DNA of 64,000 nt, from the NCBI GenBank assembly GCA_963699755.1, contig CAVOVB010000001.1, positions 1,696,001-1,760,000 of the forward strand, read 5' to 3'. The position numbers and the translations under genes are program-made. The notes beneath the pieces were generated by a model. It did not search any database and had not been told where the DNA came from. It saw only the letters and a program-made list of their open reading frames with translations. Numbering within the stretch: position 1 is the stretch's first letter; each line of letters begins with the position of its first letter. Source of the DNA: an uncultured delta proteobacterium. Its GTDB lineage: Bacteria; Myxococcota_A; Polyangia; Polyangiales; Houyiibacteriaceae. Of the stretch, positions 33,673 through 64,000 are shown piece after piece.

Positions 33673-33700
33673 GCGCGAGCTTAGCCCTCGAAGCGTCCGG

Positions 33701-33743
33701 CGCAAAAACTGCGTATTTGGAACTTTGCCCGCAAGTATTTCCG
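33701..33743. promoter_or_regulatory. bEBP enhancer box CGCA-N5-TGCG plus a partial second box
   Basis: CGCAAAAACTGCG at 33701-33713; CGCAAGTATTTCCG starting 29 bp downstream. Confidence 0.7.
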
Positions 33744-33785
33744 AACGGCGAAAGACCAACGTGCTCTCGCACGGGGTTTCTGGAG

Positions 33786-33801
33786 TGGCACGCACCTTGC
33801 T
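33786..33801 (+). promoter_or_regulatory. Sigma54 -24/-12 promoter (usp)
   Basis: TGGCAC-GCACC-TTGCT, consensus match. Confidence 0.85.
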
Positions 33802-33820
33802 GGAGGTCTGACTGGGTTCC

Positions 33821-34297
33821 ATGTTTGATATGGCGGCCAACATTCTAGCGGTTACCGATCTGACGTCTGCGAGCTACAAGCTCGTGAGCTTTGCCGCGCT
33901 CATTGCAGGCACGACCGACGGCGAGGTCATCTTGGTTTCAACCTACGGAGGCGGTGGGAGCCGGCGCTCCGAGCCTCCCGCTTCGATGCGGGACAATGCC
34001 GACGGCTGGCGCGACCGGGTCGAGTCCAGGCTTCGCCAGGAGGGACAGCTGCTCGAGCGACAGCGGCAATGGTGCGCTGATCGTGGAGTTCGATGCAGGG
34101 CGGAGCTCTACGAAGAGGGGCACTGGCCGGACTACGTACTGCAGAGCGCCAAGCGTTCCCACGTGGACCTGATTCTGCTTGGCATTCAGCTCAGCGGCGG
34201 TGCCGATCAGCTCAGTCCAATCGACATTCGGAGGCTCGCCGAGGACGCTCCCTGCCCGGTGAGCATGGTCAGGCTCCCAGCGCTTGCCTCCTTTTGA
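33821..34297 (+). CDS. Universal stress protein (divergent)
   Basis: ILAVTD start, EGHWPDYVL, VDLILLG, LAEDAPCPVSMVR. Confidence 0.8.
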   Translation: MFDMAANILAVTDLTSASYKLVSFAALIAGTTDGEVILVSTYGGGGSRRSEPPASMRDNADGWRDRVESRLRQEGQLLERQRQWCADRGVRCRAELYEEGHWPDYVLQSAKRSHVDLILLGIQLSGGADQLSPIDIRRLAEDAPCPVSMVRLPALASF

Positions 34298-34349: not shown

Positions 34350-34355
34350 AGCCGG

Positions 34356-35537
34356 ATGGTCGACGCCAGCCTGCTCCCCGCTCTCAAGGACTACGTCGGG
34401 TTCGACGCCGAGTGCGCCCGTCGCCTTCAGGCGATGAGCGCTCGGGTGGAGCCGTATCACCGTCCCATCGTCGATCGATTCTACGAGGCCATCCTCGAGG
34501 ACCCGAGCACGCGCGCAGTCCTCAAGAGCGAAGATCAGGTCCAGCGCCTCCGGTCGTCCTTGCTGCACTGGCTCGAAGGACTTTTCACCGGTCCGTACGA
34601 CACCGCGTACTACGAGAAGCGCGCCCAAATCGGACGCGTTCATGTGAAGGTTGGGCTCGAGCAGCGCTACATGCTCGGCGCGATGAACTTGATTCGAATC
34701 GGGCTTCATCGCGCAGTGTCGGATTCCGCTCCCGATGGCCTCGGGATTTTCGAAGATCACAGCGTCATCGATCAGATTTGCGACATCGAGCTCGCGATCA
34801 TGCTCGAGACATACCGAGAAGACTATGTGCTCAAGAAGACCGCCGAAGCGGAGTCGCTCGCGGTCATGGGGAGGCTGACGGCGGGGCTGGCCCACGAGGT
34901 CCGAAATCCTTTGAACGCTGCCAAGCTTCAGCTCGATGTTCTTCGACGCACGGCCTCCCACGTCGAGGACGCTTCGACGCGCCGGAAGATCGAAAGGCGA
35001 ACCAACGTCGTGCAGGACGAGCTCCGACGCTTGTCACTCTTACTCGACGATTTCCTGAATTTGGCGCGTGCGCAGCGGATGGAGCCCATCCGTTGCAATG
35101 CCAGAACGCTGCTCGGCGAAGTGCTCGAGCTGCGAGGTCCCGAGATCGAATCGCAGGGGATTGAGTTCATCGAAGACGTCGATTCGGTTTCCTGCATCCT
35201 GTTCGCAGAGCGCGATCGCCTCAAGCAGGTCGTCAACAACCTGATCACCAATGCAGTCGAGGCGGTGGCCAGCTGCGATCGGCCATCCATTCAGATCGCT
35301 AGCCGGATGCTCGGCGATGACCGGTGGGAGGTCGCGGTGATCGACAACGGTCCAGGGGTTTCGAGCGAGGTCGTCGGGCGGGCGTTCGAATCCTTCGTCA
35401 CGACCAAGGAGGCTGGCACCGGGCTCGGCCTTGCGATCGTCAAGCGAATCGTGGACTTGCACGGAGGCGCAGCGAAGCTCAGCCCAATCGCCGAGGGCGG
35501 CACCTGCGCGTCGTTTTGGATTCCGACAGGGACCTAG
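34356..35537 (+). CDS. Globin-coupled (protoglobin) sensor histidine kinase, AfGcHK/NmpU-like
   Basis: YVGF...IVDRFYEAIL (B10 Tyr), IGRVHVKVGL (proximal His), ELAIMLETYRED; AHEVRNPL H-box; NLITNA, DNGPG, GTGLGL. Confidence 0.92.
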   Translation: MVDASLLPALKDYVGFDAECARRLQAMSARVEPYHRPIVDRFYEAILEDPSTRAVLKSEDQVQRLRSSLLHWLEGLFTGPYDTAYYEKRAQIGRVHVKVGLEQRYMLGAMNLIRIGLHRAVSDSAPDGLGIFEDHSVIDQICDIELAIMLETYREDYVLKKTAEAESLAVMGRLTAGLAHEVRNPLNAAKLQLDVLRRTASHVEDASTRRKIERRTNVVQDELRRLSLLLDDFLNLARAQRMEPIRCNARTLLGEVLELRGPEIESQGIEFIEDVDSVSCILFAERDRLKQVVNNLITNAVEAVASCDRPSIQIASRMLGDDRWEVAVIDNGPGVSSEVVGRAFESFVTTKEAGTGLGLAIVKRIVDLHGGAAKLSPIAEGGTCASFWIPTGT

Positions 35538-36961
35538 TCCATGATTGGATTCTGGTAGCCCCATTCCTTGACTCGGTATTGGATCTTCCGCTGGCTGATC
35601 CCGAGGATCTCCGCTGCGCGAGCGGTGGAACCATCGACTGCATCGAGAGTCCGTAGGATCGCGACCCGTTCGAGCTCGGACATCGTGATGCCTGGAATCA
35701 GCGCCATCACCGAACCGTTTTGCAGGTCCCCGTGAGCGGAGGTGGGCAAGTCGTCGCGTTGGATCAGCTCGTTTTCGCACATGACGACGGCTCTTTCGAT
35801 CGCGTTCTCCAGCTCTCGAACGTTGCCGGGCCAGGGATAGATCATCAGGTGCTGCAATGCCTCTTCGGAGAGACCTTGCACCGGGCGGTCGTTCTCCCCT
35901 GCGTACTTGCGCAGAAACGCATGGGCTAGCAAGGGGATGTCGCTTCGGCGAACGCGGAGTGGCGGCACGTCGAGCTGGACTACCTTGAGCCTGTAGTAGA
36001 GGTCTTCGCGGAATCGTCCTTCGTCTACCCGATGCTTCAAGTTGCGATTGGTTGCGGCCACGACCCGGACATCGACCTTGAGCGTTTCATTGCCTCCGAC
36101 CCGCTCGAGCTCGCGCTCTTGAAGGAAGCGCAGGAGCTTGATTTGAACGCTCGCCGGGATTTCGCTCACCTCGTCGAGAAAGAGCGTGCCGCCATCGGCC
36201 TGCTTGAACCGCCCTTCACGCCGGGTCATCGCGCCCGTGAAAGAGCCGCGTTCGTGGCCAAAGAGCTCGGACTCGAGCAGAGTTTCGCTCAGGGACGCGC
36301 AGTTGAGCTTGATGAAGGGCTTGTCTTTGCGCTTCGAGTTCTGGTGGATTGCCGCGGCGATCAGCTCCTTGCCTGTCCCGGTTTCGCCGTGGATCAGTAC
36401 GGTCGCGCGGCTCCGAGCGACCTGCGCGATGTTTTTCATCAGCCGCTGCATCGAGGGGTGCTCGCCCAGGATGTTGCCGAGTTGAAAGCGATCGTCGAAT
36501 CGTTCGCGGAGCTGCGCAGCTTCCCGCGAGAGACGGGTTCGATCGAGTGCGCGGTCGACGATCGCCATCACTGCATCGAGCTCGAGGGGCTTGGTGAGAT
36601 AGCTTTCGGCGCCGAGCTTGATCGCTTTGACGGCGGTGTCGATGGTTGCGAACGCCGTCATCACGATGAACGTGGTATGGGGCGACATCGGTCGTCCGCG
36701 TTCGATCAGCGACAATCCGTCCATCCCCGGCATCTTGAGGTCCGTCAAGACGACATCGGGGTCGACCTGCTCCAATTGCAGGAGCGCCGTACGGCCGTCA
36801 GCAGCGGTGCTGACGGAATAGCCGGCGTCGTCCATGAGCTCGGCGAGCGCATTTCGCGCGTTCGCTTCGTCGTCGACGATTAACACGCGACCTTTGGAGA
36901 TTGCGACGTTTGGACGTCTGGCGGTGTCGGAGAAGTCGGATGCGGTGTTTACACTAGTCAT
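35534..36961 (-). CDS. Sigma54-dependent response regulator (REC-AAA+-HTH), NtrC/NmpR-like
   Basis: LIVDDE, TDLKMP, GETGTGKE, ESELFGHERGSFTGA, LFLDE, FREDLYYRL, WPGNVRELEN, AAEILGIS. Confidence 0.96.
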   Translation of the reverse strand: MTSVNTASDFSDTARRPNVAISKGRVLIVDDEANARNALAELMDDAGYSVSTAADGRTALLQLEQVDPDVVLTDLKMPGMDGLSLIERGRPMSPHTTFIVMTAFATIDTAVKAIKLGAESYLTKPLELDAVMAIVDRALDRTRLSREAAQLRERFDDRFQLGNILGEHPSMQRLMKNIAQVARSRATVLIHGETGTGKELIAAAIHQNSKRKDKPFIKLNCASLSETLLESELFGHERGSFTGAMTRREGRFKQADGGTLFLDEVSEIPASVQIKLLRFLQERELERVGGNETLKVDVRVVAATNRNLKHRVDEGRFREDLYYRLKVVQLDVPPLRVRRSDIPLLAHAFLRKYAGENDRPVQGLSEEALQHLMIYPWPGNVRELENAIERAVVMCENELIQRDDLPTSAHGDLQNGSVMALIPGITMSELERVAILRTLDAVDGSTARAAEILGISQRKIQYRVKEWGYQNPIMD

Positions 36962-36974: not shown

Positions 36975-36991
36975 TGCAGTTGCTGTGCCAA
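36975..36991 (-). promoter_or_regulatory. Sigma54 promoter of the bEBP gene
   Basis: Minus strand TTGGCAC-AGCAA-CTGCA. Confidence 0.7.
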
Positions 36992-37009: not shown

Positions 37010-38437
37010 CTAGGCGTGGGCGGTCGCGTCTTCGCTTCCCGAGAGTCTTGCCGCGCGGCCGGCGGCGAGCTGTGTGTACTCCGCGAACGAAGCTTCCAGA
37101 TCCTCGACGAACTCGTGGACGTCCGGAAAAGACTCCCAGTCTGCGTTCAGACCAAAGTGAAGTCCACCGGCGTAACTGAACAAAGCGATGCCGAGATTCT
37201 GGTTCTGCATCAACGGCACCATCGGATAGATCGACTTCATGGGAGAGCTGAGCAAGTAGAGGGGGAACGGCGGCCCGGGCACGTTGGTGATGATCAAGTT
37301 GTAGGTGCGCAGCTTCATCGCCATCAAGTAGAGCTCTGAGACGATCCGTTTGGTCGTGAGGTCTGCGACTTCTTCGATCAGCGCAGCTCCACCCGTTTGG
37401 TTCGACTCCTTCTTCAGCTCGGTCGTCACATGAATGACCTTCCGGAGTCGTTCGATGGGATCTGGTTCGGACACGGGCAGGTCTGCGAGTAGGAGGGCCA
37501 CCTGATTGCCGACGGTCGACCCTCCAGCTTTGCGAATGTTCACCGGCAGAGCGGTGCGAAACCCTTCCATCGAATCGACGTCCGAGCCCCTCCGCAACAG
37601 GAAGCGACGTACTGCGCCGGTCACCGTGGCGACGACCGCGTCGTTGATCGTTCCACCCAAGGTGTTCTTGACCGCCTTGACGTCGTCGAGGGCGAATCGC
37701 ACCCAGTCGAATCGGCGGTAGGGGCTGATATCCTGCTCCGTAAAAATCGTCCTTGGCGCTGGCTTCATGCCGGAGCGAAGCAAGCTCGATAGGCCCTGGA
37801 AGTTCTGCCGAACCCGCGGCAAGAAGTGGCTGAGCTTGCGAAGGCCGTCGATGCGGTGGTTGGTTTCACCGACGAGAAGCTGTGTTCGGCTGGGGGCCGG
37901 GCGCGGCTTCCATTCCTCTGGTTCGCGTTCCGGAGCGTCTGGGCTGACCGTCAACAAGGCTTGCAGCAGCTCAACGCCTGCGATGCCGTCGACCATGCAG
38001 TGGTGCACTTTGATAATCAGGGCAAAGCGGTCGTTCTCGACACCCTCGACCACCCAAAACTCCCAGAGTGGCCGGCTCCGATCGAGATGCTGCGAGAAGA
38101 GCCGACCCACCAGCCGTTTGAGCGAACGCTCATCGCCGGGCAGAGGCAGGCGCGTGTGGCGCAGATGAAAGTGCATGTTGAAACGGTCGTCATCGACCCA
38201 AACCGGGTGTCCATATCCCGGGATCCACTCCACTCTCTGTCGGTAACGGGGAATCGAGTCTACCGCCGCCTTGGTGTATCGGGTGAGGCGTTCGATATCG
38301 AGGCCTCCGTGCTCGAGCGTGAGAGGCTTCGCGTCAAAAATCAGAGCGGCGCCGACATGCATCGGAGCGGACTTGCTCTCGACGTCGAGAAACGTCGCGT
38401 CCAGAGCGCTCAAACGCTCGTAGAATGTTTCCGGCAT
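37010..38437 (-). CDS. Wax ester synthase / diacylglycerol acyltransferase (WS/DGAT, Tgs-like)
   Basis: ERLSALDATFL, PMHVG, LDRSRPLWEFWVVEG, HHCMVDG catalytic motif, TINDAV, ITNVPGP. Confidence 0.95.
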   Translation of the reverse strand: MPETFYERLSALDATFLDVESKSAPMHVGAALIFDAKPLTLEHGGLDIERLTRYTKAAVDSIPRYRQRVEWIPGYGHPVWVDDDRFNMHFHLRHTRLPLPGDERSLKRLVGRLFSQHLDRSRPLWEFWVVEGVENDRFALIIKVHHCMVDGIAGVELLQALLTVSPDAPEREPEEWKPRPAPSRTQLLVGETNHRIDGLRKLSHFLPRVRQNFQGLSSLLRSGMKPAPRTIFTEQDISPYRRFDWVRFALDDVKAVKNTLGGTINDAVVATVTGAVRRFLLRRGSDVDSMEGFRTALPVNIRKAGGSTVGNQVALLLADLPVSEPDPIERLRKVIHVTTELKKESNQTGGAALIEEVADLTTKRIVSELYLMAMKLRTYNLIITNVPGPPFPLYLLSSPMKSIYPMVPLMQNQNLGIALFSYAGGLHFGLNADWESFPDVHEFVEDLEASFAEYTQLAAGRAARLSGSEDATAHA

Positions 38438-38452: not shown

Positions 38453-38469
38453 AGCAAGATGTGAGCCCA
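38453..38469 (-). promoter_or_regulatory. Sigma54 promoter of WS/DGAT
   Basis: Minus strand TGGGCTC-ACATC-TTGCT (GG-N10-GC). Confidence 0.6.
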
Positions 38470-38516
38470 CGCATCTGGGAGCCAATAACCCAATACGTGG
38501 GCGTCAGAGGCCTTTG

Positions 38517-38564
38517 GGAAACGCATATTATGCGTTTCCGGTCTGGGCAAGCGCAAAATATGCA
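38517..38564. promoter_or_regulatory. Paired enhancer boxes between the divergent WS/DGAT and CBS promoters
   Basis: Perfect inverted repeat GGAAACGCATA-T-TATGCGTTTCC (38517-38539) and CGCAAAATATGCA (38552-38564), 30 bp apart. Confidence 0.8.
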
Positions 38565-38588
38565 GCCGCTGGCTGCTGGGGTTGACCA

Positions 38589-38604
38589 TGGCACAGAACA
38601 TGCT
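38589..38604 (+). promoter_or_regulatory. Sigma54 promoter of the CBS gene
   Basis: TGGCAC-AGAAC-ATGCT. Confidence 0.72.
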
Positions 38605-38617
38605 TCGAATACAGGGC

Positions 38618-39049
38618 ATGACGCAGCTCTTGGTCCGAGATCTCATGACGCAGCCGGCGAAGACCGTTGGTCCGACGAGCCCGCTTCGGGAGGTCATTCA
38701 GCTGATGGAGGCGAGCCATATCCGCCACGTGGCTGTCGTGGAGGACACTGGGCGCCTGCTGGGGCTCATTTCGCACCGCGATGTCTTACGCAGCCAGGAA
38801 GGAAGTTTGTCTGGCGCCTTGTCGACCGAGCAGGCCCACATGAACCGATGGATCGAAGCCCGATGGGTCATGACGAAAGACGTGCGCACGGTGCATCCCG
38901 AGACGCCTGCCTTGGAAGCTGCACAGATCCTCCGGTCGCACGCCTACGGTTGTGTCCCCGTGGTCGAGGATGGGCGTCTCATAGGCATGTTAACCGACTC
39001 GGATTTCGTCGAATACGCGATTCAGACGCTCTCCGATCCCGGTCTGTGA
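38618..39049 (+). CDS. CBS-pair domain protein
   Basis: VRDLMT, IRHVAVVE, LLGLIS, VMTKDVRTV, GCVPVVEDGRLIGMLTDSDF. Confidence 0.9.
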   Translation: MTQLLVRDLMTQPAKTVGPTSPLREVIQLMEASHIRHVAVVEDTGRLLGLISHRDVLRSQEGSLSGALSTEQAHMNRWIEARWVMTKDVRTVHPETPALEAAQILRSHAYGCVPVVEDGRLIGMLTDSDFVEYAIQTLSDPGL

Positions 39050-39089
39050 ACGGGCGGACGGCCAACCACCAGATCGTCCCGCACCAACC

Positions 39090-39105
39090 TGGCACGTTGC
39101 TTGCT
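39090..39105 (+). promoter_or_regulatory. Sigma54 promoter of the tandem USP
   Basis: TGGCAC-GTTGC-TTGCT, consensus match. Confidence 0.85.
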
Positions 39106-39118
39106 CTACGTTGGACCC

Positions 39119-40027
39119 ATGGCCATCAAGACGATCGTTGTGGGGACAGACCTCGGAGAGTCTGGCCATCGCGCGATGCGGCTCGCGATTGCAACGGCTA
39201 GGGCGACCAACGCTACCCTTTGGCTCGTGCATGCGAGCGAGATGGGCTTGGAGCATCCATGGTCCGACCTTCCCGTCGGGGCGAGGTCGGCCGCTCAAGC
39301 GCTTCGCGAGCGATTGAAGGGCCGCTTCGAGAACTCGCTTCAAGAGCTCGAACGCGAACGCAAGGCATGCGAAGACCTAGGCTTGAGTTGCCAAACGTCC
39401 TGTGAAGAAGGGCGTCCCTGGGAAACGATCCTGCGCACCGCCGTTTCGGTCAATGCCGACCTGATCGCCGTGGGTGATCCCGTCGGAGCCATCGGCCTCC
39501 CGGAGCGCTTGCTTGGCTCGACGGCGGAACGCGTCGTCCGGCAAGCCCCGTGCTCGGTGCTGGTTTCATGTGGCCGCCTTCGCGCGGACTACAGCGGGGC
39601 GCGTATCGCCGTGGGTGTCGATTTCTCTCCGCACGGGGTCGAGGCCGTTCGCTGGGCGCGCGACGTGGCCAACGCGATCGAAGGCGAGGTGTCGCTGCTC
39701 CATGTCGTACCGCACCCGATCACCGAAAGTAGGATGCCGACGGAGTGGCCAAGTGTGCTCGAAGGCCTCGCGTCCATGGCACGCTCGCGGCTCGAGCAAC
39801 TCGTCCTGACCGAAGGTCTGAAACCGAGTACGACCATACAGGTATTAGACGGATCGATAGGAAAGACGATCTGCAATGCGGCGGCGAGCATCAACGCAGA
39901 CCTGGTGTTTGTCGGCTGTAGGGGGCAGGGCAGGCTCCGCGGCATGATGCTTGGCAGTGCCTCGCAGTACTGCCTTCGCTATTCACCGGTTCCGGTTCTC
40001 ACAGTTCGTCCGGGACTTCAGCGCTAG
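39119..40027 (+). CDS. Tandem-domain universal stress protein
   Basis: TIVVGTD, LLGSTAERVVRQAPCSVLV, IAVGVDFS, GCRGQG, MLGSASQYCLRYSPVPVLTV. Confidence 0.93.
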   Translation: MAIKTIVVGTDLGESGHRAMRLAIATARATNATLWLVHASEMGLEHPWSDLPVGARSAAQALRERLKGRFENSLQELERERKACEDLGLSCQTSCEEGRPWETILRTAVSVNADLIAVGDPVGAIGLPERLLGSTAERVVRQAPCSVLVSCGRLRADYSGARIAVGVDFSPHGVEAVRWARDVANAIEGEVSLLHVVPHPITESRMPTEWPSVLEGLASMARSRLEQLVLTEGLKPSTTIQVLDGSIGKTICNAAASINADLVFVGCRGQGRLRGMMLGSASQYCLRYSPVPVLTVRPGLQR

Positions 40028-41567
40028 CCCTTCAATGTTGCTTCGAGCAGGCTCCGGATCTCGTCCAACGGCCGGGACGTATCCAACCGGAGATGCTCGG
40101 ACGCCCGAAGCTCGTCGATCGGATCGAAGTGCGTTTCGAACTCCTCCAACAGTTCGGTTCGCGCGTCACTCTCATGTGGTCCCCCTCGTTCGCGCGCGGC
40201 CAGGCGGTCCAAGATCAGCGCTCGGGGTGCACTGCACTCGACCAGGATGAATGGGACTCCGTGCTGGTTCGCCAAGCGGTAGGCTGCATCCCGCATCGCC
40301 GCTGTGCGAAAAGAAGCGTCGATCACGACTGGACGTCCGGACGCGAGCACGATGTCGGCAAGCCGAAAAAGCTCCCCGTAGACGTCTTTGGTCGCGCTTG
40401 GCGAGTAAGCTCCGGACCAAGCTTTACCCGCGAGGGATTCGGTCGGCTCGGTGGCTCATGAGCTGCTTGCGCGTCCGGTCGGAGCCGAGCACCGGAGCGG
40501 CGAGCAAGTCGCCGATCGTCGCCGAGGTCTGGCTCTTCCCGGCGGCGATCATCCCTCCGACCGCGACGACCCGCGGTGGCACGAGCGGTGGGCGCTCGAA
40601 CGCCAAAGCTAAAACGAAGTAACGCCTGGCCTCTCGCCGCGCCCGCTCCCTTGCCTCAGGGGATGCCTCGGTGTCCGAGGCTAGCAGTGATGCAACCTTG
40701 CCGCGCACGTATGCGCGGTAGCTCTCGTAGAAATTGACCACCGAATAGAGCTCATAGTCGTTCGATTCGCGGGCGTACCGCGCGAGAAACCGTTCGGCGA
40801 GGTCCACCCGCCCGTGCCAGGCGAGGTCCATCGACAGGAACGCGATGTCCGCGCAGACATCTCCGTATCGGAAGCGGTCGTTGAACTCGATGCAGTCGAT
40901 GATCGAAATCGAGACGTCGGACTCGAAGTACACGTGCTCGAGCCTCAAGTCACCGTGTCCGTCACGGACACGCGCGGCCGCAATTCTCGCCATGAAAGGA
41001 GCATCGTTCCGGAGTGTCCGCACTTGCCAAGACTCGACCTCGAGAGCCTGGTCCGGCGTCAAGATAGTCCCCGATCGAGGCCCGTGTTTGTTCGAAGTTC
41101 TCCTCCACGTTTTTTCGGATCGTCTCGATTCGACCGTGCTCGGACGTTTCCGCGTCGCAGCGTACGCCTTCGTGGAATCGCGCGATGTGAGCCGCGAGCG
41201 CGTCGATGTGTTTCGGCATCAACAAGCCGGCTCGCAGGAGCGCGTCTGCACGCCGTTCAACTGCGAGACGACGCATTCGAACCGCCCAGTCCACGGCCGC
41301 GCCAGCTCCTGCGATCCGGTGAACGCCGGAAGCGTCGATCGTGATGGGCACGACATCGAGGTAGACGTCCGGTGCGAGCCGCCGGTTGAGCTGCAGCTCT
41401 GCGTCGCACGCGGCTCGGCGCTTCTCGAGCGTCGTGAAGTCGAGGAAGCCCAAGTCGACGGGTCGTTTGACCTTGAACACCTCGTCCGCACCCAAGAAGA
41501 TCCAAGAGATATGCGTCTCGACCAGCTCGAAGCCGCTTGCCTCGAGATCCGCTTTCAGCTTTCCCAT
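40024..41567 (-). pseudogene. Bifunctional aminoglycoside-phosphotransferase-like / AAA_33 P-loop kinase (Rv2004c-like), interrupted by two +1 frameshifts
   Basis: ETHISWIFL, KVKRPVDLGFLDFTT, ELQLNRRLAP in one frame; DGHGDLRLEH, IDCIEFNDRFR, DIAFLSMDL, GMIAAGKS in a second; VVIDASFR, ESDA in a third. Junctions at about 41065 and 40455. May be intact in vivo. Confidence 0.85.
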
Positions 41568-41640
41568 CACATCCCTGAGGGTGAGGCTGCTAGTATACCC
41601 ATCCGAGCAACTCCCGCCCACGCGCTAGGCTTCCGCGCTA

Positions 41641-41682
41641 CGCAATTCTATCGCCAGGTCCGCAATTCGCGCATCATTTGCG
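41641..41682. promoter_or_regulatory. Enhancer box with partial partner
   Basis: CGCATCATTTGCG at 41670-41682; CGCAATTCTATCG 29 bp upstream at 41641. Confidence 0.7.
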
Positions 41683-41722
41683 TCACTCGTCTGGAATGGC
41701 AGCCAAAGCAGGAGACTCCACT

Positions 41723-41738
41723 GGGCACGGGGTTTGCT
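41723..41738 (+). promoter_or_regulatory. Sigma54 promoter of the DUF5335-baeRF12-CBS operon
   Basis: GGGCAC-GGGGT-TTGCT. Confidence 0.75.
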
Positions 41739-41769: not shown

Positions 41770-42105
41770 ATGACGACACGGAAGTTAGAGAGCCCGGAGT
41801 GGCAACGGTACTTCGACGAGGTTTCAAAGCACCTCCCCACGATGCGGGTAGGCATTTCGGTCATGGGTGAGAAAATCGGCGTGCAGCCCGAGAGCGAAGG
41901 CAGCGTGTTGGTCGGAGTCAGTTACGACCCGAACGACGACGTTTTCTCGGTCGATGCGGTGAATATTTCGCACCGAGTGCCCAAGCCGAAGGAAATCTTC
42001 GTTCGCGAACAGGCTGGAAGGCTTTCGAGCATCGAGGTCATTGCGCAGGACGGGACGAAGCAAATTATCGAGCTCCGGCCGCTCCCCTCGTTGCCTGCTT
42101 CCTAA
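41770..42105 (+). CDS. DUF5335 family protein
   Basis: WQRYFDEVSK, IGVQPE, GVSYDPNDD, ISHRVPKPKEIFV, DGTKQII; GGAGG RBS. Confidence 0.8.
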   Translation: MTTRKLESPEWQRYFDEVSKHLPTMRVGISVMGEKIGVQPESEGSVLVGVSYDPNDDVFSVDAVNISHRVPKPKEIFVREQAGRLSSIEVIAQDGTKQIIELRPLPSLPAS

Positions 42106-42128
42106 CTTGCGACTACGGAGGTCTGAAT

Positions 42129-42578: not shown

Positions 42579-42623
42579 CCGGGCGCTCGTTCGTCGAACG
42601 CATGACAGCAAAAGGTAGATGAG

Positions 42624-48879: not shown

Positions 48880-48887
48880 GGCTCACC

Positions 48888-52546: not shown

Positions 52547-52554
52547 CCTGCGGT

Positions 52555-53823: not shown

Positions 53824-53833
53824 CGCACCTTTT

Positions 53834-54972: not shown

Positions 54973-54988
54973 TCAAGCAGCTGCGCCT

Positions 54989-55882: not shown

Positions 55883-55914
55883 TTGGGCTTGTCCGTCCTC
55901 TCAATCGGGGCTGG

Positions 55915-56376
55915 TTAGCCGCCGAATGGGTCACTGGGGATCAGGTTATCGTTGAGAAGCTTCTCGGTCACGTACTCGCGCTCTTCTTGTTCGATATCGA
56001 TGCGAAGCATTTCGGCGAGCTTGGTAACGCTCGAGACGAGGCCATCCGGCGAGCTGGCCTCCCGAATCGCATCGACGAGCCGGTCCAGCTCCCGACGCTG
56101 TTCGGCATGCTCGGCGTGCAGGTGACGGACCCGCTCAGGGCCGAACCCATCGGCGTCGTTGATAGCGGGCACCATGTGGGTCTCTTCGAAGTTCATGTGG
56201 AGCTCCAGGATGCCGCGAAGCGCATAGGCGGCGCGCTTGACCTGCGCAGCGGCCACGCTTCCCTCTCCGAGCTTGGCAACCCCCGCCTCGAGCTCCGAGA
56301 GCATGAGCTCGATCTCACGGTGCTGGCTCAGCACCTTCCTACGAACCTCGGAAGGCATCAGGGCTTCGTTGCTCAT
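55915..56376 (-). CDS. Hemerythrin/HHE domain protein
   Basis: QH...LHMNFEE...LHAEHAEQ...DIEQEE pattern; AGGAGG RBS. Confidence 0.75.
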   Translation of the reverse strand: MSNEALMPSEVRRKVLSQHREIELMLSELEAGVAKLGEGSVAAAQVKRAAYALRGILELHMNFEETHMVPAINDADGFGPERVRHLHAEHAEQRRELDRLVDAIREASSPDGLVSSVTKLAEMLRIDIEQEEREYVTEKLLNDNLIPSDPFGG

Positions 56377-56412: not shown

Positions 56413-56429
56413 TGCAAGTCCCGCGCCAA
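56413..56429 (-). promoter_or_regulatory. Sigma54 promoter of the hemerythrin-USP-cytochrome-CoA-transferase operon
   Basis: Minus strand TTGGCGC-GGGAC-TTGCA. Confidence 0.8.
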
Positions 56430-56459
56430 GGGTTTAGCAGCATTTCGCGTCAGCGGACA

Positions 56460-56501
56460 CGCAAGTTCTGCGCCGCTCGGGAAACATTCGCAGAACCTGC
56501 G
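56460..56501. promoter_or_regulatory. Paired enhancer boxes between divergent promoters
   Basis: CGCAAGTTCTGCG (56460-56472) and CGCAGAACCTGCG (56489-56501), 29 bp apart. Confidence 0.82.
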
Positions 56502-56544
56502 TCGTTTTCGCTATGCTCGCAGGGCAAAAGCCGTGTCGATCGTC

Positions 56545-56560
56545 TGGCACGAAGCTTGAT
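56545..56560 (+). promoter_or_regulatory. Sigma54-like promoter of the usp pair (variant -12)
   Basis: TGGCAC-GAAGC-TTGAT (GA instead of GC at -12). Confidence 0.6.
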
Positions 56561-56576: not shown

Positions 56577-57056
56577 ATGGACCAGCCACAGACCATTCTC
56601 GTCGGCACCGATTTCTCTGACATCTCGGACGAGGCGCTTCGGGCCGCAGCCCTCTACGCCAAGACCTTCAACTCGCGAGTGCTGGTCACTCATGTATTCG
56701 ACCCGACGCCCAACGTGCCGCCCGTCGTCTGGTCGCGTCCGGACCTTCTCGAGCGGAGCATTCGCGTCGAAATCGAAGAGGCGATTCGGGAGACGCTCAC
56801 CGGCAAGACCGCGGAGCTGCTCCAAGGGGTCGCCGAGGTCGAGCTGAGCGTGGTTCAACACCCCTCTCCGGGTCGTGCCCTGGTCGAGATGGCCGAGGAC
56901 GAGGGCGTGGACCTCCTGATTCTCGGCTCGCATGGTCGAAGCGGCCTGTCCCGCGCGTTCCTCGGTAGCGTCGCGGAACGTGTCGTCCGTCACGCGCCGT
57001 GTCCCGTCTTGGTCGTGCGTGGCCGATGTGATCACAAGCCGAAGGATGGAGAGTAG
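56577..57056 (+). CDS. Universal stress protein
   Basis: ILVGTDFS, LILGSHGRSG, FLGSVAERVVRHAPCPVLVV. Confidence 0.94.
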   Translation: MDQPQTILVGTDFSDISDEALRAAALYAKTFNSRVLVTHVFDPTPNVPPVVWSRPDLLERSIRVEIEEAIRETLTGKTAELLQGVAEVELSVVQHPSPGRALVEMAEDEGVDLLILGSHGRSGLSRAFLGSVAERVVRHAPCPVLVVRGRCDHKPKDGE

Positions 57057-57059
57057 CCA

Positions 57060-57470
57060 GTGTCTTTGATTCCACGTTTGGTCGTCGCCTATGACTTCTC
57101 CGATCCCGCGCGTCGCGCGTTCGAGCTCGGCGTCTTCATGGGGCGTCAACTCGATGCAGACGTCCACATCGTGACGGTCCTCGACTCGAGTGAATCCAGC
57201 GGGTCCACTCTGGGCAAGGAGCTCGACGACCTCGGTCAGCTCCTCGAGATGCGAACCTGCGGCACCATCAAGGCGGACACCGTACGGATCCAGTGCCACG
57301 CGGTGGCCGGCCATCCGGCCGATGCCGTCGTGGCACTGGCGCGCGAGCTCGACGCGCCGCTCATTCTCTGCGGTACGACCGGGAAAGGCGCAGTCGCACG
57401 CACACTGCTTGGCAGCGTCTCTCACGAGCTCGTGCACAAGAGCGGTGCGATCGTGATGTCGGTGCCCTGA
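57060..57470 (+). CDS. Universal stress protein
   Basis: LVVAYDFS, GHPADAVV, GTTGKG, LLGSVSHELV. Confidence 0.9.
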   Translation: MSLIPRLVVAYDFSDPARRAFELGVFMGRQLDADVHIVTVLDSSESSGSTLGKELDDLGQLLEMRTCGTIKADTVRIQCHAVAGHPADAVVALARELDAPLILCGTTGKGAVARTLLGSVSHELVHKSGAIVMSVP

Positions 57471-57480: not shown

Positions 57481-58869
57481 TTAGCGGCTCGGCCCGACGA
57501 AGGGCGCCCCGACGACACGGCTGCCCTTGCCGTCGTCCCGCCCCTCCATGGAGATCGTGAGCTTCAGCGCGAGACCAGGGCGCATCTGGTCTTGCGGCAG
57601 GATGGCTAGAATCGGCAAGTAGGTGCTGCCAAGCGATTCGAGCTCGATGCGCTTCTGAGGAATGATGTATTCGATGGCGCTTTCGGACTCTGGCTCGATG
57701 ATGAAGGTCTGCTTGTCGCCGGTCTTGTTGACGAGATGCACCCGCAGGGAGTTCCGCACCTTTCCGTCGACCACCATGAATGGTGCCCCCTCGAGGCGCA
57801 GCACGTTGGCTTCGAACGCGGCGCTTTGCGAAAATGCGAGCGTGGCGCCGAGCAGCCAAAGCGTGACGATCCCCCCATAGAAAAACAGGCGAGGCCGCCC
57901 GAAGTGCTTGGGCTTGCCCTCCAGGCCATTGAGCGAGTCGTAGCGAACCAGACCCTCCGGTCGGCCGACTTTGGTCATGATTTCGTCGCAGGCATCGACG
58001 CAAGCAGCACAACCGACGCACTCCATCTGCAGCCCGTTGCGGATGTCGATGCCGGTCGGGCAGACGACCACGCAGCGTTTGCAGTCGACGCAGTCGCCGT
58101 TGCTCGGATCGCTGGCCTTGCCCCTAGGTTCGCCTCGGTTGAAGTCGTAGCCGATGACCATCGTGTCCTGATCGGTCATTGCCGACTGCAGACGGCCGTA
58201 GGGACAAATGATTAGACACAACTGCTCACGGAACCAACTGAAGTTGAAGTAGAGGATCGCCGACATCACAATCACCCAGGTAAATGCGGTCGGATGCTCG
58301 GCGGGGCTCCTCTGAACCATTTCGACCAGCGACGGAAGCGAGACAAAGTAGCTGATGAACACGTGCGAGAGCAAAAGTGCGAGCACGATGTACACGCCAT
58401 GCTTGAGCAACTTGCGCCAAACTTTGTCGAAGCTGAGCCCAGCCGCGTTGCGCCGCATCCGTTGGGCCCTCGGCCCTTCGATTAGACGCTCGACACGTCG
58501 AAATACGCCTTCGAGGAAGACGGTGTGTGGGCAGGCGTAGCCACACCACAAGCGCCCTTTGATCGCGGTGACGATCAGCAGGCTTAGCCCAACGCCGCTC
58601 AGCAAGAAGAACACGAGCCAGAAGTCCTGCGCGTTGAACACGGCACCGAACAAGTAGAAACGCCGGTTCACGATGTCTAGGAAGACCGCCGGGTGCCCTC
58701 CGATCTTGATGAAGGGCAACAGGACGTAGATCGCGATCAGGAGGGTGAAGATCGTGTATCGGAGGCGCGTGAATCGGCCCTTCACATCGGCTGGATGCAC
58801 GTAGTTGCGACTGCCGTCGGAACGCAGTGAGCTGGCATGTTCTTCAACGACGGGCAGCTTTGAAGTCAT
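57481..58869 (-). CDS. ccoG: cbb3 oxidase accessory protein CcoG/FixG
   Basis: GRLWCGYACPHTVF, FREQLCLIICPYGRLQS, CVDCKRCVVVCPTGIDIR, ECVGCAACVDAC. Confidence 0.96.
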   Translation of the reverse strand: MTSKLPVVEEHASSLRSDGSRNYVHPADVKGRFTRLRYTIFTLLIAIYVLLPFIKIGGHPAVFLDIVNRRFYLFGAVFNAQDFWLVFFLLSGVGLSLLIVTAIKGRLWCGYACPHTVFLEGVFRRVERLIEGPRAQRMRRNAAGLSFDKVWRKLLKHGVYIVLALLLSHVFISYFVSLPSLVEMVQRSPAEHPTAFTWVIVMSAILYFNFSWFREQLCLIICPYGRLQSAMTDQDTMVIGYDFNRGEPRGKASDPSNGDCVDCKRCVVVCPTGIDIRNGLQMECVGCAACVDACDEIMTKVGRPEGLVRYDSLNGLEGKPKHFGRPRLFFYGGIVTLWLLGATLAFSQSAAFEANVLRLEGAPFMVVDGKVRNSLRVHLVNKTGDKQTFIIEPESESAIEYIIPQKRIELESLGSTYLPILAILPQDQMRPGLALKLTISMEGRDDGKGSRVVGAPFVGPSR

Positions 58870-58913
58870 CGTGTGCTGTCTTTAGGGTTTGAAGCCCATC
58901 CGGCAAGGCTGGC

Positions 58914-59486
58914 TCAGGGTTCCCAGACCTTCGCGTTCTCTTCGACCGGCTTGCCGCCCTCGACCTTCGTGTTCCGCAGGGTCAGCACATAGGCGACCAC
59001 TTGGTTCACGCCTTGCTCGCCGAGGATTGGTGCCCACGGGGGCATTCCCTTCTCTGCGATGCCGTTGGTGACGATCGCGTGAATGTCGGTCGGCGCTCCT
59101 CCGTGCACCCAATACTCGTCGGTGAGGTTGGAGCCGAGGCCAAGGCGTCCCTGAGCTTGTGTATCGTGGCACGCGACGCATTGCGCCATGAAGGTGGTCT
59201 TACCGGCAGCCACCGCGCTTGCGTCGAGGGAGAGTGCGTCGAGAGAGTCGTCGGTGACGATGCTGCGCTCCGCTTCTGCCGCGGCGACCGCCTCGGCATA
59301 GATCTCGGGCTGCAGCTTCCCAATGTCATAGACGTGATAGTTGAACCAGTAGACCAGCCCGAAGGCGACCGCTCCATAGAAGGTGAGCAGCCACCAGATG
59401 GGCAGGTTGTTGTCGGCTTCCTCGATGCCGTCATAGACGTGCAGGATCTCACCTTGGATTTCGTCGGTTCGTCTTTCATCACTCAT
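58914..59486 (-). CDS. ccoP: cbb3 oxidase subunit III (mono-haem CcoP)
   Basis: HVYDGIEEADNNLPIWW (FixP N-terminus), CVACH, NLTDEYWVHGG, GMPPW. Confidence 0.92.
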   Translation of the reverse strand: MSDERRTDEIQGEILHVYDGIEEADNNLPIWWLLTFYGAVAFGLVYWFNYHVYDIGKLQPEIYAEAVAAAEAERSIVTDDSLDALSLDASAVAAGKTTFMAQCVACHDTQAQGRLGLGSNLTDEYWVHGGAPTDIHAIVTNGIAEKGMPPWAPILGEQGVNQVVAYVLTLRNTKVEGGKPVEENAKVWEP

Positions 59487-59664
59487 GGGGTACCTCCGAC
59501 TCCTCTTCGAGCGGAATGCGTGCGTATTCGTCCACCTCGGATGTCTTCATCCGCATCACGCGAACGATGACGATGAGAAACACGATGAAGAACAAACCCA
59601 GTGCGAGCAGCGGATAGAGCAGCACGGGGCTCTGTTCGAAAAACTCGGAAGCGAATCGGCTCAT
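59479..59664 (-). CDS. ccoQ: cbb3 oxidase small subunit CcoQ-like
   Basis: Single TM plus ARIPLEE; located between ccoO and ccoP. Confidence 0.8.
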
Positions 59665-62006
59665 GGCGCCACCTCCGTCGTTTCGACCCGGGCGAGCGAC
59701 TCGGCTTCGGGGATCCGCCCCAGCCGCTGCAGGTAGGAGATCAGCGCCACCAAGCGGCTGTTGACCAGGAGCTCGCAGCCTTCGGCAGGGGCGTCACAAA
59801 CCTTGACGCCTTCGTCCGTCGCCAGACCAGCCGCGATTGCTGCCGCTGCAGTCTGCGCGTTTTGCTCGGCCATTTGAATCTGCTCGGCCTTGTACGGAAC
59901 GCCGATGTTCCGCATGGCCCGCAGCTTCACCTCCGTGCCCGCGAAGTCGATCGTTTCCTTCGCGAGATGCGCGTAGGGCGGCATGTTCGAGCCGATCGAG
60001 ATCTCGCGCGGGTTGATCATGTGCTTGTAGTGCCAGACGTCGTTGTACTTGCCACCGACGCGCGCCAGGTCCGGACCGATGCGGCGGGAGCCCCACTGGA
60101 ACGGGTGGTCGAAGATCGAGTCGTCCATCGTGGAGACCGCACCGTACCGAGCTGTCTCCCAGGTGAAGGGGCGAATCATCTGCGAGTGGCAGGTGTAGCA
60201 ACCTTCTCGAATGAAGACATCGCGGCCTTCGAGCTCTAGCGGCGTGTAGGGCACGTTCTTCGTGGTGCGGATCGTCTCGGGCACGGAAATGACCATCGGG
60301 ATGATCTCGGCAACGCCGCCAACCAATACACCGATGACGACCAGAACGGTGAAGACCCCGGCACGCCCTTCGATGGCGTGGTGCCAGGAAAGCTTCTCGT
60401 CATTGCGATTGCGCATCGACACCGCAATCGCTGCAACGCCCCACATGACCGCGGCGATCGCAAGGATCGTACTGATCAAGCCGTCGAAGAAGGCCGTCCC
60501 AAAGAGCAAGGCCATGATGATGATCGACGCGATGACCGGCTGACCGAAGACGAGCTTGGGCCACGGGATCGCGCGCTCCCGAGGCTCGGTGACCACGGCA
60601 ACTTCGACCTCGCCGTCCACGGGGGCGCCGCTCCTGGCGGTCGCGATGAGGTTCCAGGCCATCAGAAGAATGCCGGAGAAGTACAGGAGCCCGGAGATGA
60701 GCCGCGCCCAGTACATCGGCCGAATCGCCAGGTAGGTTTCCACGAAGTTCGGGTAGAGAAGCCCGCCGGTCTCGCTAACCGCGCGCCACATCAGGCCCTG
60801 CGTGATGCCGGCAACCCACATCGAAATGGCGTAGATGAGGATGCCCACGGTCGCGATCCAGAAATGGAAGTTCGCGGCCGAAACAGAGCGAAGCTTCGTG
60901 CCGTAGAGCCTCGGAACGAGCCAGTAGAACATGCCGGCGGCCATCAGGCCGTTCCAGCCCAAGGCGCCGCTGTGGACGTGACCGATGATCCAGTCGGTGT
61001 AGTGGGCGAGGCCGCTGATGCTCTTGATGCTGAGGAGCGGGCCTTCGAAGGTGCTCATGCCGTAGAAGGTCACGCCGGCGGCGAGGAACTTCAGCACAGG
61101 GTCGGTGCGGAGCTTGTCCCAGGCGCCCCGAAGCGTGAGTAGGCCGTTCAGCATGCCGCCCCAGCTCGGCGCCCAAAGCATCAAGCTGAAGACCATGCCC
61201 AGGCTCTGCGCCCAGTCGGGTAGGGCGGTGTACAGCAAGTGGTGAGGGCCGGCCCAAATGTAGAGGAAGACGAGGCCCCAGAAGTGGACGATCGAGAGTC
61301 GGTACGAGAAGACCGGCCGTTCGGCAGCCTTCGGGAGGAAGTAGTACATGATGCCGAGAATCGGCGTCGTGAGGAAGAATGCGACGGCGTTGTGGCCGTA
61401 CCACCACTGCACGAGCGCATCCTGCACGCCGGCGAACACCGAGTAGCTCTTGAACATGCTAACCGGGATTTCGAAGCTGTTCACGATGTGCAGAACCGCG
61501 ACCGTGATGATCGTCGCGATGTAGAACCAGATCGCAACGTACAAATGCTTCTCGCGTCGATTGGCAAGCGTCCAGAAGAAGTTCACCGCGAAGACGACCC
61601 AAATCAGGGCGATCGCGATGTCGATCGGCCATTCGAGCTCGGCGTATTCCTTCGCTGCGGTGATGCCGAGCGGGAGGGTGATCGCCGCGGCGACGATGAT
61701 CAGCTGCCAGCCCCAGAAGTGGACCGACGACAAGATGTCGGACGCGAGTCGTGCCTTCGCCAATCGCTGCGTCGAGTAATAGATGCCCGCGAAGAGCATG
61801 TTGCCCACGAACGCGAAGATGACCGCGTTGGTGTGCAAGGGCCTCAGACGACCGAACGACAAATACGGCGGCAGGTTGGCCGGCCACCAGGCCAACTGCA
61901 GTGCGATGATGATCCCCACCAGCATGCCGACGATGCCAAACAGCACCGAGGCCCATAAGAACTGGCGGACGACCTTGTCGTTATAAACGATCCGCTGGGT
62001 TTCCAT
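59661..62006 (-). CDS. ccoN: Fused cbb3 oxidase subunits I and II (CcoN-CcoO)
   Basis: [30 protein letters not shown]; then [44 protein letters not shown] in one ORF. Confidence 0.97.
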
Positions 62007-62181
62007 ACTCGTCCTCTTCCCTCTCCGTCGTTGGGGTCACGGGCTTTTCATCGTCAAGCGGGAGCAAAGCAAGGCGATCGGCTTGATCAAACGTTCCTTG
62101 CCGCACGGTCCACGCGAAGAACGCCACAGCGACGCCAACCAAAATCACGCTAATGAAAATCAGTAAGATCAAGACCTCCAT
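61981..62181 (-). CDS. ccoS: cbb3 assembly protein CcoS/FixS
   Basis: [15 protein letters not shown]...[11 protein letters not shown]...LLPLDD. Confidence 0.85.
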
Positions 62182-64000
62182 CGGAGCCTTTCTCGGGACA
62201 GCATCATCACCGTGTACGCGAGGGTGATGAGCGAGCTGAGCGGCATTAGCACAGCTGCAACCCAAGGCCGCATCAAACCTGCCAATGCAAGGGATACAGC
62301 GACCAAATTGTAAGCAATTGCAAAAGCAAGGATACGACGCACGACGTGCGCGAGCGTATCGGACGCGCGCAGAACTTGCGCCACAGGGTGCAAGCCCGGA
62401 GACACGAAATAGAAATCACATCGTGAGGCCATGAACGGTCGATTGACTGCAGGTGTGCCCGAGCAGGCCGCCGCTCGCATGGCGATCTGGTCGTTCAAAC
62501 CGTCGCCTACCAGCAAAGTTCGTGCCGGTTCGTGCGCCCGCACGTACGCTGCCTTTTGCTCTGGATCTTGACCCCCGATGCAGAGCTGCTCATCCATCCC
62601 CAGGCTCACGCCGAGGTTGACGACGCGAGCCGGCGAATCGCCGCTGAGAATGACCAGCTCGTAGCCAGCGGCTTCGAGCCGTTCGATCTCGGCCCGTGCG
62701 CCCGGGCGCAGCTGCTCGTCGGTGTGTAGCGCGACCCGAACTTTCCCATCGATCGCGAAAACGACGTCGCCCCCGTCTTCAGAAACATGGGCGGCCCAGC
62801 GGGGCGACCCCAGTTTCAGTGCTCGGCCGTCGTGCTCGGCGCTCGTGCCGTAACCGCTCTCTTCTCGTGTATCGAGCTCGATGAAACGGGCGGCCGGGTG
62901 CCCTTCTAACGCTCGCCGAACCGCGACGCTTTTCGGATGCGCGCTTCGGGCCGCGATGCTGTAGAGCAGAGTGATGTCTTCATCGGAGAGCGATTCAAGC
63001 GCGGCTGGGTTGGCGACTTCGAGCATGCCGGTCGTGAGTGTGCCGGTCTTGTCGAACACGATTCGTGTCATCGAGCGAACGCGATCGAGGAAGTCACCGA
63101 CGCGCACGAACACGCCGGCGCGGCGCAACTGTGTGAGCACGAGCTCATAGGCGAGCGGTGCGGCGATACCAAACGCGCAGGGGCAGGTCACGACCAAGAC
63201 CGCCGTGCCCACCTCGATCGCGAAAAGCGGCTCTCCAGTTCGCCACCACCAGTAGCCGATGCCCGCAGCTGCAAGCCCGACGACGCCGATGACGTAGAAG
63301 CGGGAGAGCCGTGACCACCAGCGTGTGGCCAAGGGCCCATCGCCCCGGGCGGCGGGGTCGCGTCCCAGCAATCCCACCAAGGACGACGCGGCGAAGTCGG
63401 TGGAGGCAATGCCGGAAAAAGCCCGATCACCCAGGTTGAAGGCACCTGCGGGCACGGTTTGTCCTTGGTCGAACCGTCGCGGCCGGCTTTCACCGTCGAT
63501 CCAGTCGAGGGAGCAACTCGCCGCACGGTCGAGCACCAGGAGGTCTACCGGAACCAGATCGCCGGGCGCGATGAGCAAGCGGTCTCCATCGCGGATGCCG
63601 ATGCAATGCACGATGCGAACGACGCCATCTTTGATCTCGCGCGTCAGCAAGCTTTGGGTCCCATCGTCGGCGAGGAGTTGCGCACGATTGCGCTCCAGCA
63701 TTCGCTGTTGAAGCCAGCGTCCAACGAGCATGAGCGCAACGAAGACGGTGAGCGTGTCGATGTAAGCCGCGTGCCCAGAGGCAAAGAAGAACGAATAGGT
63801 CGAGCCGGCAAAGGCGAGCGCGATCCCGAGGGCGATCGGCACGTCGAGGTGTAGCACGCGACTGCGAACGGCGCGGAATGCAGAACCGATGAACACCGAA
63901 CCGCCCACGAGAACCGCAAGGACGCCAGCGGCATAGCTCAACTGGTTGAGCAGCACGTAGACCGGACCTTCGCGGAGGCCCAGATACATCGCAGCGCCGA
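62169..64000 (-). CDS. ccoI: Cu-transporting P1B-type ATPase CcoI/FixI, 5' end outside the window
   Basis: PGDLVPVD, LVVTCPCAFG, FDKTGTLT, HP, GDGLND, YNL, LMPLSS; immediately upstream of ccoS. Confidence 0.92.
   Translation of the reverse strand, partial: GAAMYLGLREGPVYVLLNQLSYAAGVLAVLVGGSVFIGSAFRAVRSRVLHLDVPIALGIALAFAGSTYSFFFASGHAAYIDTLTVFVALMLVGRWLQQRMLERNRAQLLADDGTQSLLTREIKDGVVRIVHCIGIRDGDRLLIAPGDLVPVDLLVLDRAASCSLDWIDGESRPRRFDQGQTVPAGAFNLGDRAFSGIASTDFAASSLVGLLGRDPAARGDGPLATRWWSRLSRFYVIGVVGLAAAGIGYWWWRTGEPLFAIEVGTAVLVVTCPCAFGIAAPLAYELVLTQLRRAGVFVRVGDFLDRVRSMTRIVFDKTGTLTTGMLEVANPAALESLSDEDITLLYSIAARSAHPKSVAVRRALEGHPAARFIELDTREESGYGTSAEHDGRALKLGSPRWAAHVSEDGGDVVFAIDGKVRVALHTDEQLRPGARAEIERLEAAGYELVILSGDSPARVVNLGVSLGMDEQLCIGGQDPEQKAAYVRAHEPARTLLVGDGLNDQIAMRAAACSGTPAVNRPFMASRCDFYFVSPGLHPVAQVLRASDTLAHVVRRILAFAIAYNLVAVSLALAGLMRPWVAAVLMPLSSLITLAYTVMMLSRERLRWRS

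Follow-up and report, generated by a model that had tools for sequence, protein, structure and literature searches.

The subject of this report is a 64,000-nucleotide stretch of DNA from an uncultured delta proteobacterium of the order Polyangiales (assembly GCA_963699755.1, contig CAVOVB010000001.1, positions 1,696,001 to 1,760,000), referred to here as the window. It carries a protoglobin-HisKA-HATPase histidine kinase (34356-35537, plus strand) tail-to-tail with a Rec-sigma54 AAA bacterial enhancer-binding protein (bEBP; 35534-36961, minus strand), a pair already recognized in a first-pass annotation. Sequence comparisons strongly support the view that the kinase is a natural fusion of an NmpU-type globin to an NmpS-type kinase core. 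There is likewise strong support for a collapse, in the window genus, of the NmpRSTU phosphorelay known from Myxococcus xanthus from four proteins to two. The full mechanism proposed here, in which the fused two-protein relay has NmpS-type specificity and a sensor active in the deoxy form, is a prediction of function to which a probability of roughly 0.6 is assigned.

The locus is identified as the already known Nmp regulon of low oxygen, here in an uncultured Polyangiales genus and enlarged by storage genes, because its recurrent palindromic box, GCGCA-N5-TGCGC, matches the NmpR site published for M. xanthus and its activator is an NmpR orthologue. In M. xanthus this consensus is found with a 14-15 bp spacing at bound promoters; the targets listed comprise a CBS protein, a universal stress protein (USP), HemN-hemerythrin and a P-type ATPase-cbb3 operon. 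One target is up 6.5-fold in hypoxia, and the target USP has already been likened to the Mycobacterium tuberculosis dormancy regulon (PMC11841059). The window bEBP groups with the Myxococcus-type NmpR (support 97/97; 55% identity), and its recognition helix and helix-turn-helix (HTH) are near-identical to those of that protein. The Myxococcus-type anchor, L156, comes from metagenome contigs; it was found by the published nmpU primer, and three published primers match it. Family f53 was rejected as a source of NmpR: its best bEBP matches are PilR-like pairs, and it is not the Myxococcus family (primer match 1/28). The window genome also holds a duplicate of NmpR (L183; G000:C1:648354-649748) that is 54% identical, carries Glu in place of the phospho-Asp and has no kinase beside it; this protein may activate similar boxes constitutively.

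The first-pass annotation had suggested that the combination of genes and switch might be new. The box, its spacing, the CBS, USP, hemerythrin and cbb3 targets and the tuberculosis comparison had in fact been published (PMC11841059), and the regulon is mostly known. What is upheld is the idea of a single globin-kinase/sigma54 switch with a readable low-oxygen and storage regulon, the motifs of which are conserved in relatives. The predicted additions to the Nmp regulon are a wax ester synthase/diacylglycerol acyltransferase (WS/DGAT), glycogen genes, an APH-AAA protein, baeRF12, a CoA-transferase and a hibernation promoting factor (HPF) gene. Of these, WS/DGAT, the glycogen operon and HPF would extend the regulon towards storage and ribosome hibernation.

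The chimeric nature of the 393-residue kinase is evident from several comparisons. Residues 1-160 show about 50% identity with NmpU globins, whereas the rest of the protein (161-393) shows 41-48% with the cores of receiver-bearing NmpS proteins and 27-34% with NmpU cores. In a 64-row tree of cores, 23/23 NmpU cores, including that of L156, form one clade (100/99), and the window core joins the NmpS of genome G037 and a fused kinase of G054 (98/94). Eleven rows had been removed beforehand (two unrelated hybrid kinases, a long outgroup, a partial U and near-duplicates), and six hybrid kinases without a matching H-box were not included. The globin falls among Polyangiales NmpU globins (83/89 in the globin tree). 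Column by column, the sequence keeps to the U consensus as far as Tyr157 and switches to that of S at about Thr162, which puts the junction at about 157-161. Gly177, Leu178, Asn187, Ala189, Leu191 and Gln192 of the dimerization and histidine phosphotransfer domain (DHp) are shared with 90-100% of 29 S sequences and with 0-4% of 28 U sequences. An AlphaFold model has a continuous helix, residues 132-201, running from the globin into the DHp.

The kinase had earlier been equated with NmpU. This applies to the globin but not to the core, and a separate NmpS gene is absent. The NmpS N-terminus (Rec-PAS) was found in 0/41 genomes of the genus versus 20/24 genomes of other genera in the family, and the best tblastn match of NmpS in the window genome is the fused kinase itself. 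A search of this genome and of 16 locus sets of the genus for NmpT found none at the locus in 16/16 sets, and the genome gave generic receiver matches of 29-39%. Relay-bearing relatives have the gene order U-(T)-S, tail-to-tail with R; therefore one internal deletion gives the window arrangement. No report of an NmpU-NmpS fusion or of a deoxy-active globin kinase was found in the literature searched, which consisted mostly of freely readable papers.

Globin-to-NmpS-core fusions appear to have arisen repeatedly. A tree of 39 direct fusions has 10 label changes, 7 of which are forced by starred branches, and the count of origins by label changes is at least seven. This is a phosphorelay simplification with intermediates still visible in sequence. 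Genome G322 lacks NmpS and carries the pre-His helices of NmpU and NmpS in tandem, and in the congeneric genomes G432 and G433 U, T and S are still separate genes in similar neighbourhoods; in G044, G317, G325 and G376 the NmpS PAS is retained between globin and core. In the trees, the globin and the core of a fused protein have their partners in the U and the S of one and the same relay-bearing relative (G322 with G370; G168/G201 with G375).

The reverse order of events, in which the pair of globin kinase and NmpR came first, the U-T-S relay grew out of it and the window kinase is no derived fusion, is regarded as very improbable and is already disfavoured for the window lineage. Varied junctions from lineage to lineage, several with remnants of the NmpU helix or the NmpS PAS, speak against it, as does the nesting of the window core among receiver-bearing NmpS cores (the 98/94 grouping above). 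The occurrence of the U-T-S order in both Myxococcus-type and Polyangiales loci is a further argument, and an approximately unbiased (AU) test under LG+G4 rejects a single origin of four fused groups (p 0.0003; the tested group was named after earlier trees had been inspected). An ancestral pair would fit the wide distribution of globin plus S-core proteins, which make up 89 of the best 150 representatives at 50% clustering, beside 32 U-type, 19 ambiguous and 10 unparsed ones; the profile was built from fused forms and the counts are no abundance estimate. It would also fit one whole family that carries the fused form only, and within the S clade the trees lack an independent root.

Loss of NmpS by fusion of its core to the globin raises a problem of sign. 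In M. xanthus, NmpU phosphorylates the NmpS and NmpT receivers and not NmpR. NmpS alone phosphorylates NmpR, is off while NmpU is on, and has the unphosphorylated protein as its active form (PMC6211767). The globin-coupled kinase AfGcHK is switched on by O2 and shows no activity in the Fe(II) form (PMC8697598). A bare NmpU-NmpR pair would thus be unable to drive a hypoxia regulon, because NmpU is O2-on and does not phosphorylate NmpR. NmpS inverts the O2-on signal of NmpU, and with this inverter gone, either a deoxy-active globin kinase or an O2-induced regulon is required. Retention of the output by a deoxy-active fused sensor is the simplest reading, since relay-bearing relatives have this same low-oxygen cargo and the window lacks the inverter. 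Among 26 relay-bearing loci, USP genes are shared by 17, CBS genes by 13, cco genes by 12 and hemerythrin genes by 8, and boxes occur at 21/60 cargo promoters compared with 17/134 others.

The proposed mechanism is as follows. The ancestor, as the sequences strongly suggest, had nmpU-nmpT-nmpS, tail-to-tail with nmpR, and a deletion joined the NmpU haem globin to the NmpS kinase core, with removal of the NmpU kinase, NmpT and the NmpS receiver-PAS. The chimera would carry the NmpS DHp specificity and hence, judging from the M. xanthus specificity data, phosphorylate the adjacent NmpR directly. By homology, phosphorylated NmpR would bind the paired boxes observed about 85 bp upstream of sigma54 promoters and switch on the USPs, CBS proteins, hemerythrin, WS/DGAT, glycogen enzymes and the HPF gene, as well as the units that hold the kinase and NmpR themselves. 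The globin is expected to turn the kinase on upon O2 release and to leave it off, or acting as a phosphatase, when O2 is bound. The change of polarity could most simply come from a coupling helix longer by one residue. Between the last Tyr of the globin and the phospho-His, the separation is 27 residues in the window kinase (Tyr153 to His180) and in 118/120 of its close relatives, and 26 residues in 115/120 U-types and in AfGcHK (157 to 183); a second lineage (P0249) separately reached 27. One added linker residue inverts the engineered kinase YF1 (PMC6798134).

Perhaps the polarity of AfGcHK was kept by the same chimera, with the same direct pairing, and it was the regulon that was re-signed: it would be induced once O2 becomes available to a facultative organism, to serve cbb3 respiration and storage in oxic pulses. 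This is considered unlikely. It would leave the sensor mechanism unchanged, some fusions do keep the NmpU phase, and anoxic growth is plausible in a genome with A-type and cbb3 oxidases and, in addition, two NorB-like genes (typed by length and score). The +1 linker, on the other hand, is strictly conserved in the window clade, and a flip of the whole regulon in many independent fusions is less likely than selection of junctions that preserve the output. In addition, the USP, CBS, hemerythrin and HPF genes are targets hypoxia-induced in M. xanthus and are retained beside intact relays.

Less likely still is a chimera only weakly gated by O2, either near-constitutive or sensing NO, CO, haem redox state or ATP, with oxygen control left to phosphatase activity or to another factor such as the Glu-receiver NmpR duplicate. 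Since NmpS is active when unphosphorylated, its core, once freed, may default to the on state; linkers of many different lengths are tolerated, and both NO reductase-like genes and the duplicate activator are present. Against weak gating stand the fixed linker length within the clade and the invariance in the fused clade of the haem ligand His96 (14/14) and the distal Tyr43 (14/14), the equivalents of AfGcHK His99 and Tyr45.

Several observations weigh against a deoxy-active fused relay that sets its sign by helix length. The linkers of 40 direct S-type fusions measure 17, 21 (12 sequences), 26, 27 (4), 28 (3), 31 (2), 32 (8), 33, 34, 35 (4), 41, 51 and 54 residues, and about 4 of 16-18 lineages, counted by eye, keep the NmpU heptad phase (26, 33, 47, 54), no fewer than expected by chance. 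The least confident part of the AlphaFold model (pLDDT <50 at 165-178) lies within the coupling helix. Strict box-pair plus sigma54 promoters occur in only 2/26 relay loci, a motif scan found no sigma54 promoter for the cco operon, and the NmpR duplicate could use the same boxes. The genome searches scored the best 40 or fewer candidates per genome, and many of the genomes are draft metagenome-assembled genomes. A test by lineage did not support a general rule of heptad phase for the fusions; the phase-keeping lineages are single sequences, and the diversified clades (21, 27, 32, 28/35) depart from the NmpU phase. The wider proposal, that at least seven such collapses gave rise to a naturally occurring family of globin-coupled histidine kinases that are activated in the deoxy form and take their polarity from the length of the coupling helix, is put forward as an evenly balanced one.

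The Nmp system of M. xanthus is one of the closest known systems to that of the window. Both have an NmpR orthologue, the same box with 14-15 bp spacing, sigma54 promoters, protoglobin input, CBS/USP/hemerythrin/cbb3 cargo and autoregulation (PMC6211767, PMC11841059). The window differs in having no NmpT or separate NmpS, in the fusion of globin to NmpS core, in a larger, clustered cargo (WS/DGAT, glycogen, APH-AAA, baeRF12, CoA-transferase) and in many additional promoters ahead of lipoprotein genes. The globin-HisKA-HATPase order, the haem His and the distal Tyr are shared with AfGcHK of Anaeromyxobacter sp. Fw109-5 (PDB 5OHE; PMC8697598), whereas the window core is S-type rather than U-type, its coupling helix measures 27 rather than 26 residues, NmpR and not an NmpT-type receiver is its predicted partner, and its predicted O2 polarity is the opposite. 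A deleted inverter with the same targets is what leads to this prediction of a globin kinase of opposite polarity to AfGcHK. Annotation as 'GcHK/NmpU' by domain order can hide a different partner and sign.

DosS and DosT of M. tuberculosis are GAF-haem sensors, and DosR is a sigma70-type regulator. The analogy to the window is one of output only, as the window sensor is a protoglobin and the regulator a sigma54 activator (Pfam). A deoxy-active haem kinase, demonstrated for DosS/DosT, is predicted here, and the DosR regulon has USP and tgs1-type WS/DGAT cargo, with Rv2004c and Rv2626c among its listed members (PMC11203133). Compared at the level of families, the window has USP, WS/DGAT, CBS and APH-AAA genes, the last set beside the Rv2004c class of DosR cargo. 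The engineered YF1 LOV-FixL chimeras also have a sensor swapped onto a foreign DHp and catalytic (CA) domain, with sign inverted by a one-residue change (PMC6798134); the window fusion is natural and haem-based, and the phase rule is inconsistent across natural fusions. Recurrent fusions with varied junction lengths are a natural counterpart of engineered linker libraries. If the proposed polarity is correct, the fused and unfused relatives would be a ready series for the question of how helix phase sets sign in sensor kinases.

Motif scans found the nine -24/-12 elements and the five intergenic regions with a common palindromic box that had been claimed earlier (Table 1); the boxes are mostly in pairs 14-15 bp apart. 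As background, the regions upstream of 4414 genes in the genome have a sigma54-like match in 7.5% of cases and a box pair in 1.7%. Promoter elements persist in relatives where the surrounding DNA has diverged. Before USP4, the sigma54 element and the box pair are each kept in 9/10 relatives; a box pair precedes the bEBP in only 3/19, and the USP2 element has no box pair of its own (4/19). Operon-internal controls are without promoter elements (CBSb 0/17, CoA-transferase 0/13, ccoN 0/10 relatives), the ccoN figure covering both the sigma54 element and the box pair.

A sigma70 promoter scan of 33400-36000 found none. A TTGACA with a 17-bp spacer lies just before the kinase (34323-34352), is kept in a second copy of the region on contig C7 and falls below the scanner threshold; it is possibly a constitutive sigma70 promoter. 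Past the window end, a conserved box without a clear -24/-12 element is found at window coordinate 65383, between the first cco-operon gene and a YwiC-like gene. An nqrA-F operon (Na+-translocating NADH:quinone reductase) follows the cluster at window coordinates 67414-73276, with CBS genes on both sides; a single box upstream is kept in the closest relatives, and the motif scan found no sigma54 promoter for it.

Table 1. Features of the Nmp cluster in the window. Coordinates are window positions; a point in the strand column marks elements listed without strand.
Feature	Coordinates	Strand	Basis or conservation
NmpR-type box 33700-33714 with weaker partner 33729-33743	33700..33743	.	pair kept in 12/18 relatives
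-24/-12 element of USP1-kinase unit	33785..33801	+	18/18 relatives
USP1	33821..34297	+	Pfam Usp
Kinase residues 1-157, NmpU-type protoglobin	34356..34826	+	Tyr43, His96 kept (AfGcHK Tyr45/His99)
Kinase residues 158-393, NmpS-type pre-His helix, DHp (His180) and CA	34827..35537	+	junction ~157-161
NmpR orthologue, Rec-AAA-HTH sigma54 activator	35534..36961	-	Pfam, tree
-24/-12-like element before bEBP, weakly conserved	36975..36991	-	8/19 relatives
WS/DGAT, upstream of bEBP, co-directional	37010..38437	-	Pfam; TIGR02946 above cut-off
Divergent promoter: -24/-12 38453-38469(-) and 38588-38604(+); box pair 38521-38535/38551-38565	38453..38604	.	pair 14/17 relatives
CBS protein, probable start 38618	38582..39049	+	Pfam
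-24/-12 element (39089-39105) and tandem USP	39089..40027	+	Pfam; element in 17/19 relatives
APH-like + AAA_33 protein, three frames here, intact 513 aa in relatives	40024..41570	-	
Box pair 41640/41669 and -24/-12 41722-41738(+), before DUF5335	41640..41738	.	pair 9/10, -24/-12 10/10 relatives
DUF5335, baeRF12/Host_attach, CBS	41770..43388	+	Pfam
Glycogen operon: GDE, GT4, GH57, glycogen synthase-phosphorylase fusion (two frameshifts here)	43422..52378	-	
Glycogen-operon -24/-12 (52427-52443) and box pair 52503/52533	52427..52547	-	-24/-12 13/17, pair 15/17 relatives
Hemerythrin, tandem USP, di-haem cytochrome, small lipoprotein, CoA-transferase	52555..56376	-	
Divergent promoter: -24/-12 56413-56429(-) and 56544-56560(+); box pair 56459/56488	56413..56560	.	
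USP4, USP5	56577..57470	+	Pfam
ccoG, P, Q, fused NO, S, ccoI	57481..64000	-	ccoI and operon start extend past window

A position weight matrix of box pair plus sigma54 element, trained on the cluster promoters and hence circular for hits in the cluster, gives 33 matches in the genome versus 0 and 0 in two shuffles. Seven are in the cluster, 6 in the C7 copy and 20 elsewhere. The cluster itself is conserved, but the claim of a physically clustered regulon is not supported, as 20/33 predicted promoters lie outside the cluster and its C7 copy. The outside promoters are on contigs C1, C2, C3, C5, C7 and C10 of the window genome (G000), mostly with 83-86 bp spacing, and about 13/20 precede secreted or lipobox proteins, judged by eye and largely without Pfam families; as the bin is mixed, some may belong to a second organism. 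A gene for an HPF/S30AE plus cold-shock domain protein (G000:C4:37234-37800), with box and -24/-12 element kept in 7/11 loci, is assigned to the regulon as a member outside the cluster. Both baeRF12 and HPF are putative ribosome-protection proteins.

A Pfam scan of the window recovered all the genes named in the first-pass annotation: five USP genes (two with tandem domains), two CBS genes, WS/DGAT, baeRF12/Host_attach, glycogen genes, an acetyl-CoA hydrolase/transferase, an HHE hemerythrin, a putative di-haem cytochrome with two CxxCH motifs in one protein, and cco genes. The label 'Rv2004c-like kinase' is borne out only as membership of the APH-like plus AAA_33 family. Gene spacing suggests that the genes at 52555..56376 probably form one operon. 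Throughout the genus, glycogen synthase (PF05693) and alpha-glucan phosphorylase (43422-47679 in the window) are joined in one protein of 1418 aa, with GH57 and GDE as neighbours. Single extra bases at 40448, 41062, 46501 and 48744 break the reading frames of three window genes, those for APH-AAA, glycogen synthase-phosphorylase and GH57. These are probably assembly errors, because the genes are intact in the 99.4%-identical genome G023 and in the C7 copy; pseudogenization was rejected on the same grounds.

The window genome is 5.35 Mb in 11 contigs, with 9% contamination. An RNA run (X1) compared with it contained 0.06 of the words and consisted of contigs only. The C7 copy of the region, 82% identical, served as a footprinting control; it is part of a second copy of about 100 kb (G000:C7:211155-311149; 79-83% identical), from which the bin is judged to contain a second, related organism. 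The block had been described as an island. Hallmarks of genomic islands (atypical composition, a tRNA or integrase flank, patchy distribution) were looked for and not found for the window cluster: GC is 0.60-0.65, as in the genome, no tRNA was found in the window, and the kinase is present in 35/36 genomes of the genus. The synteny search that had been suggested, run in relatives within the genus, found clustering and motifs conserved, the opposite of the outcome named in the first-pass annotation as a refutation. In the 16 locus sets, kinase and bEBP are tail-to-tail in 16/16, WS/DGAT follows in 14 and glycogen genes in 15, and cco genes are 40 kb or less away in 11/12. A horizontally acquired island is rejected on composition, distribution and synteny, all of which mark the cluster as vertically inherited and chromosomal.

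In genome G196 (locus L174), which is 99% complete, NmpS adjoins NmpR and no protoglobin was found, which points to a possible loss of the sensor from this relay. Two more globin-kinase types (L110, L115-L117 and L119; L111-L114 and L127), from other classes of the phylum, lie beside cco genes, USPs and unrelated bEBPs, and the G180 neighbourhood also has WS/DGAT, hemerythrin and an APH-AAA gene, which suggests that the same cargo is placed under different switches in these classes.

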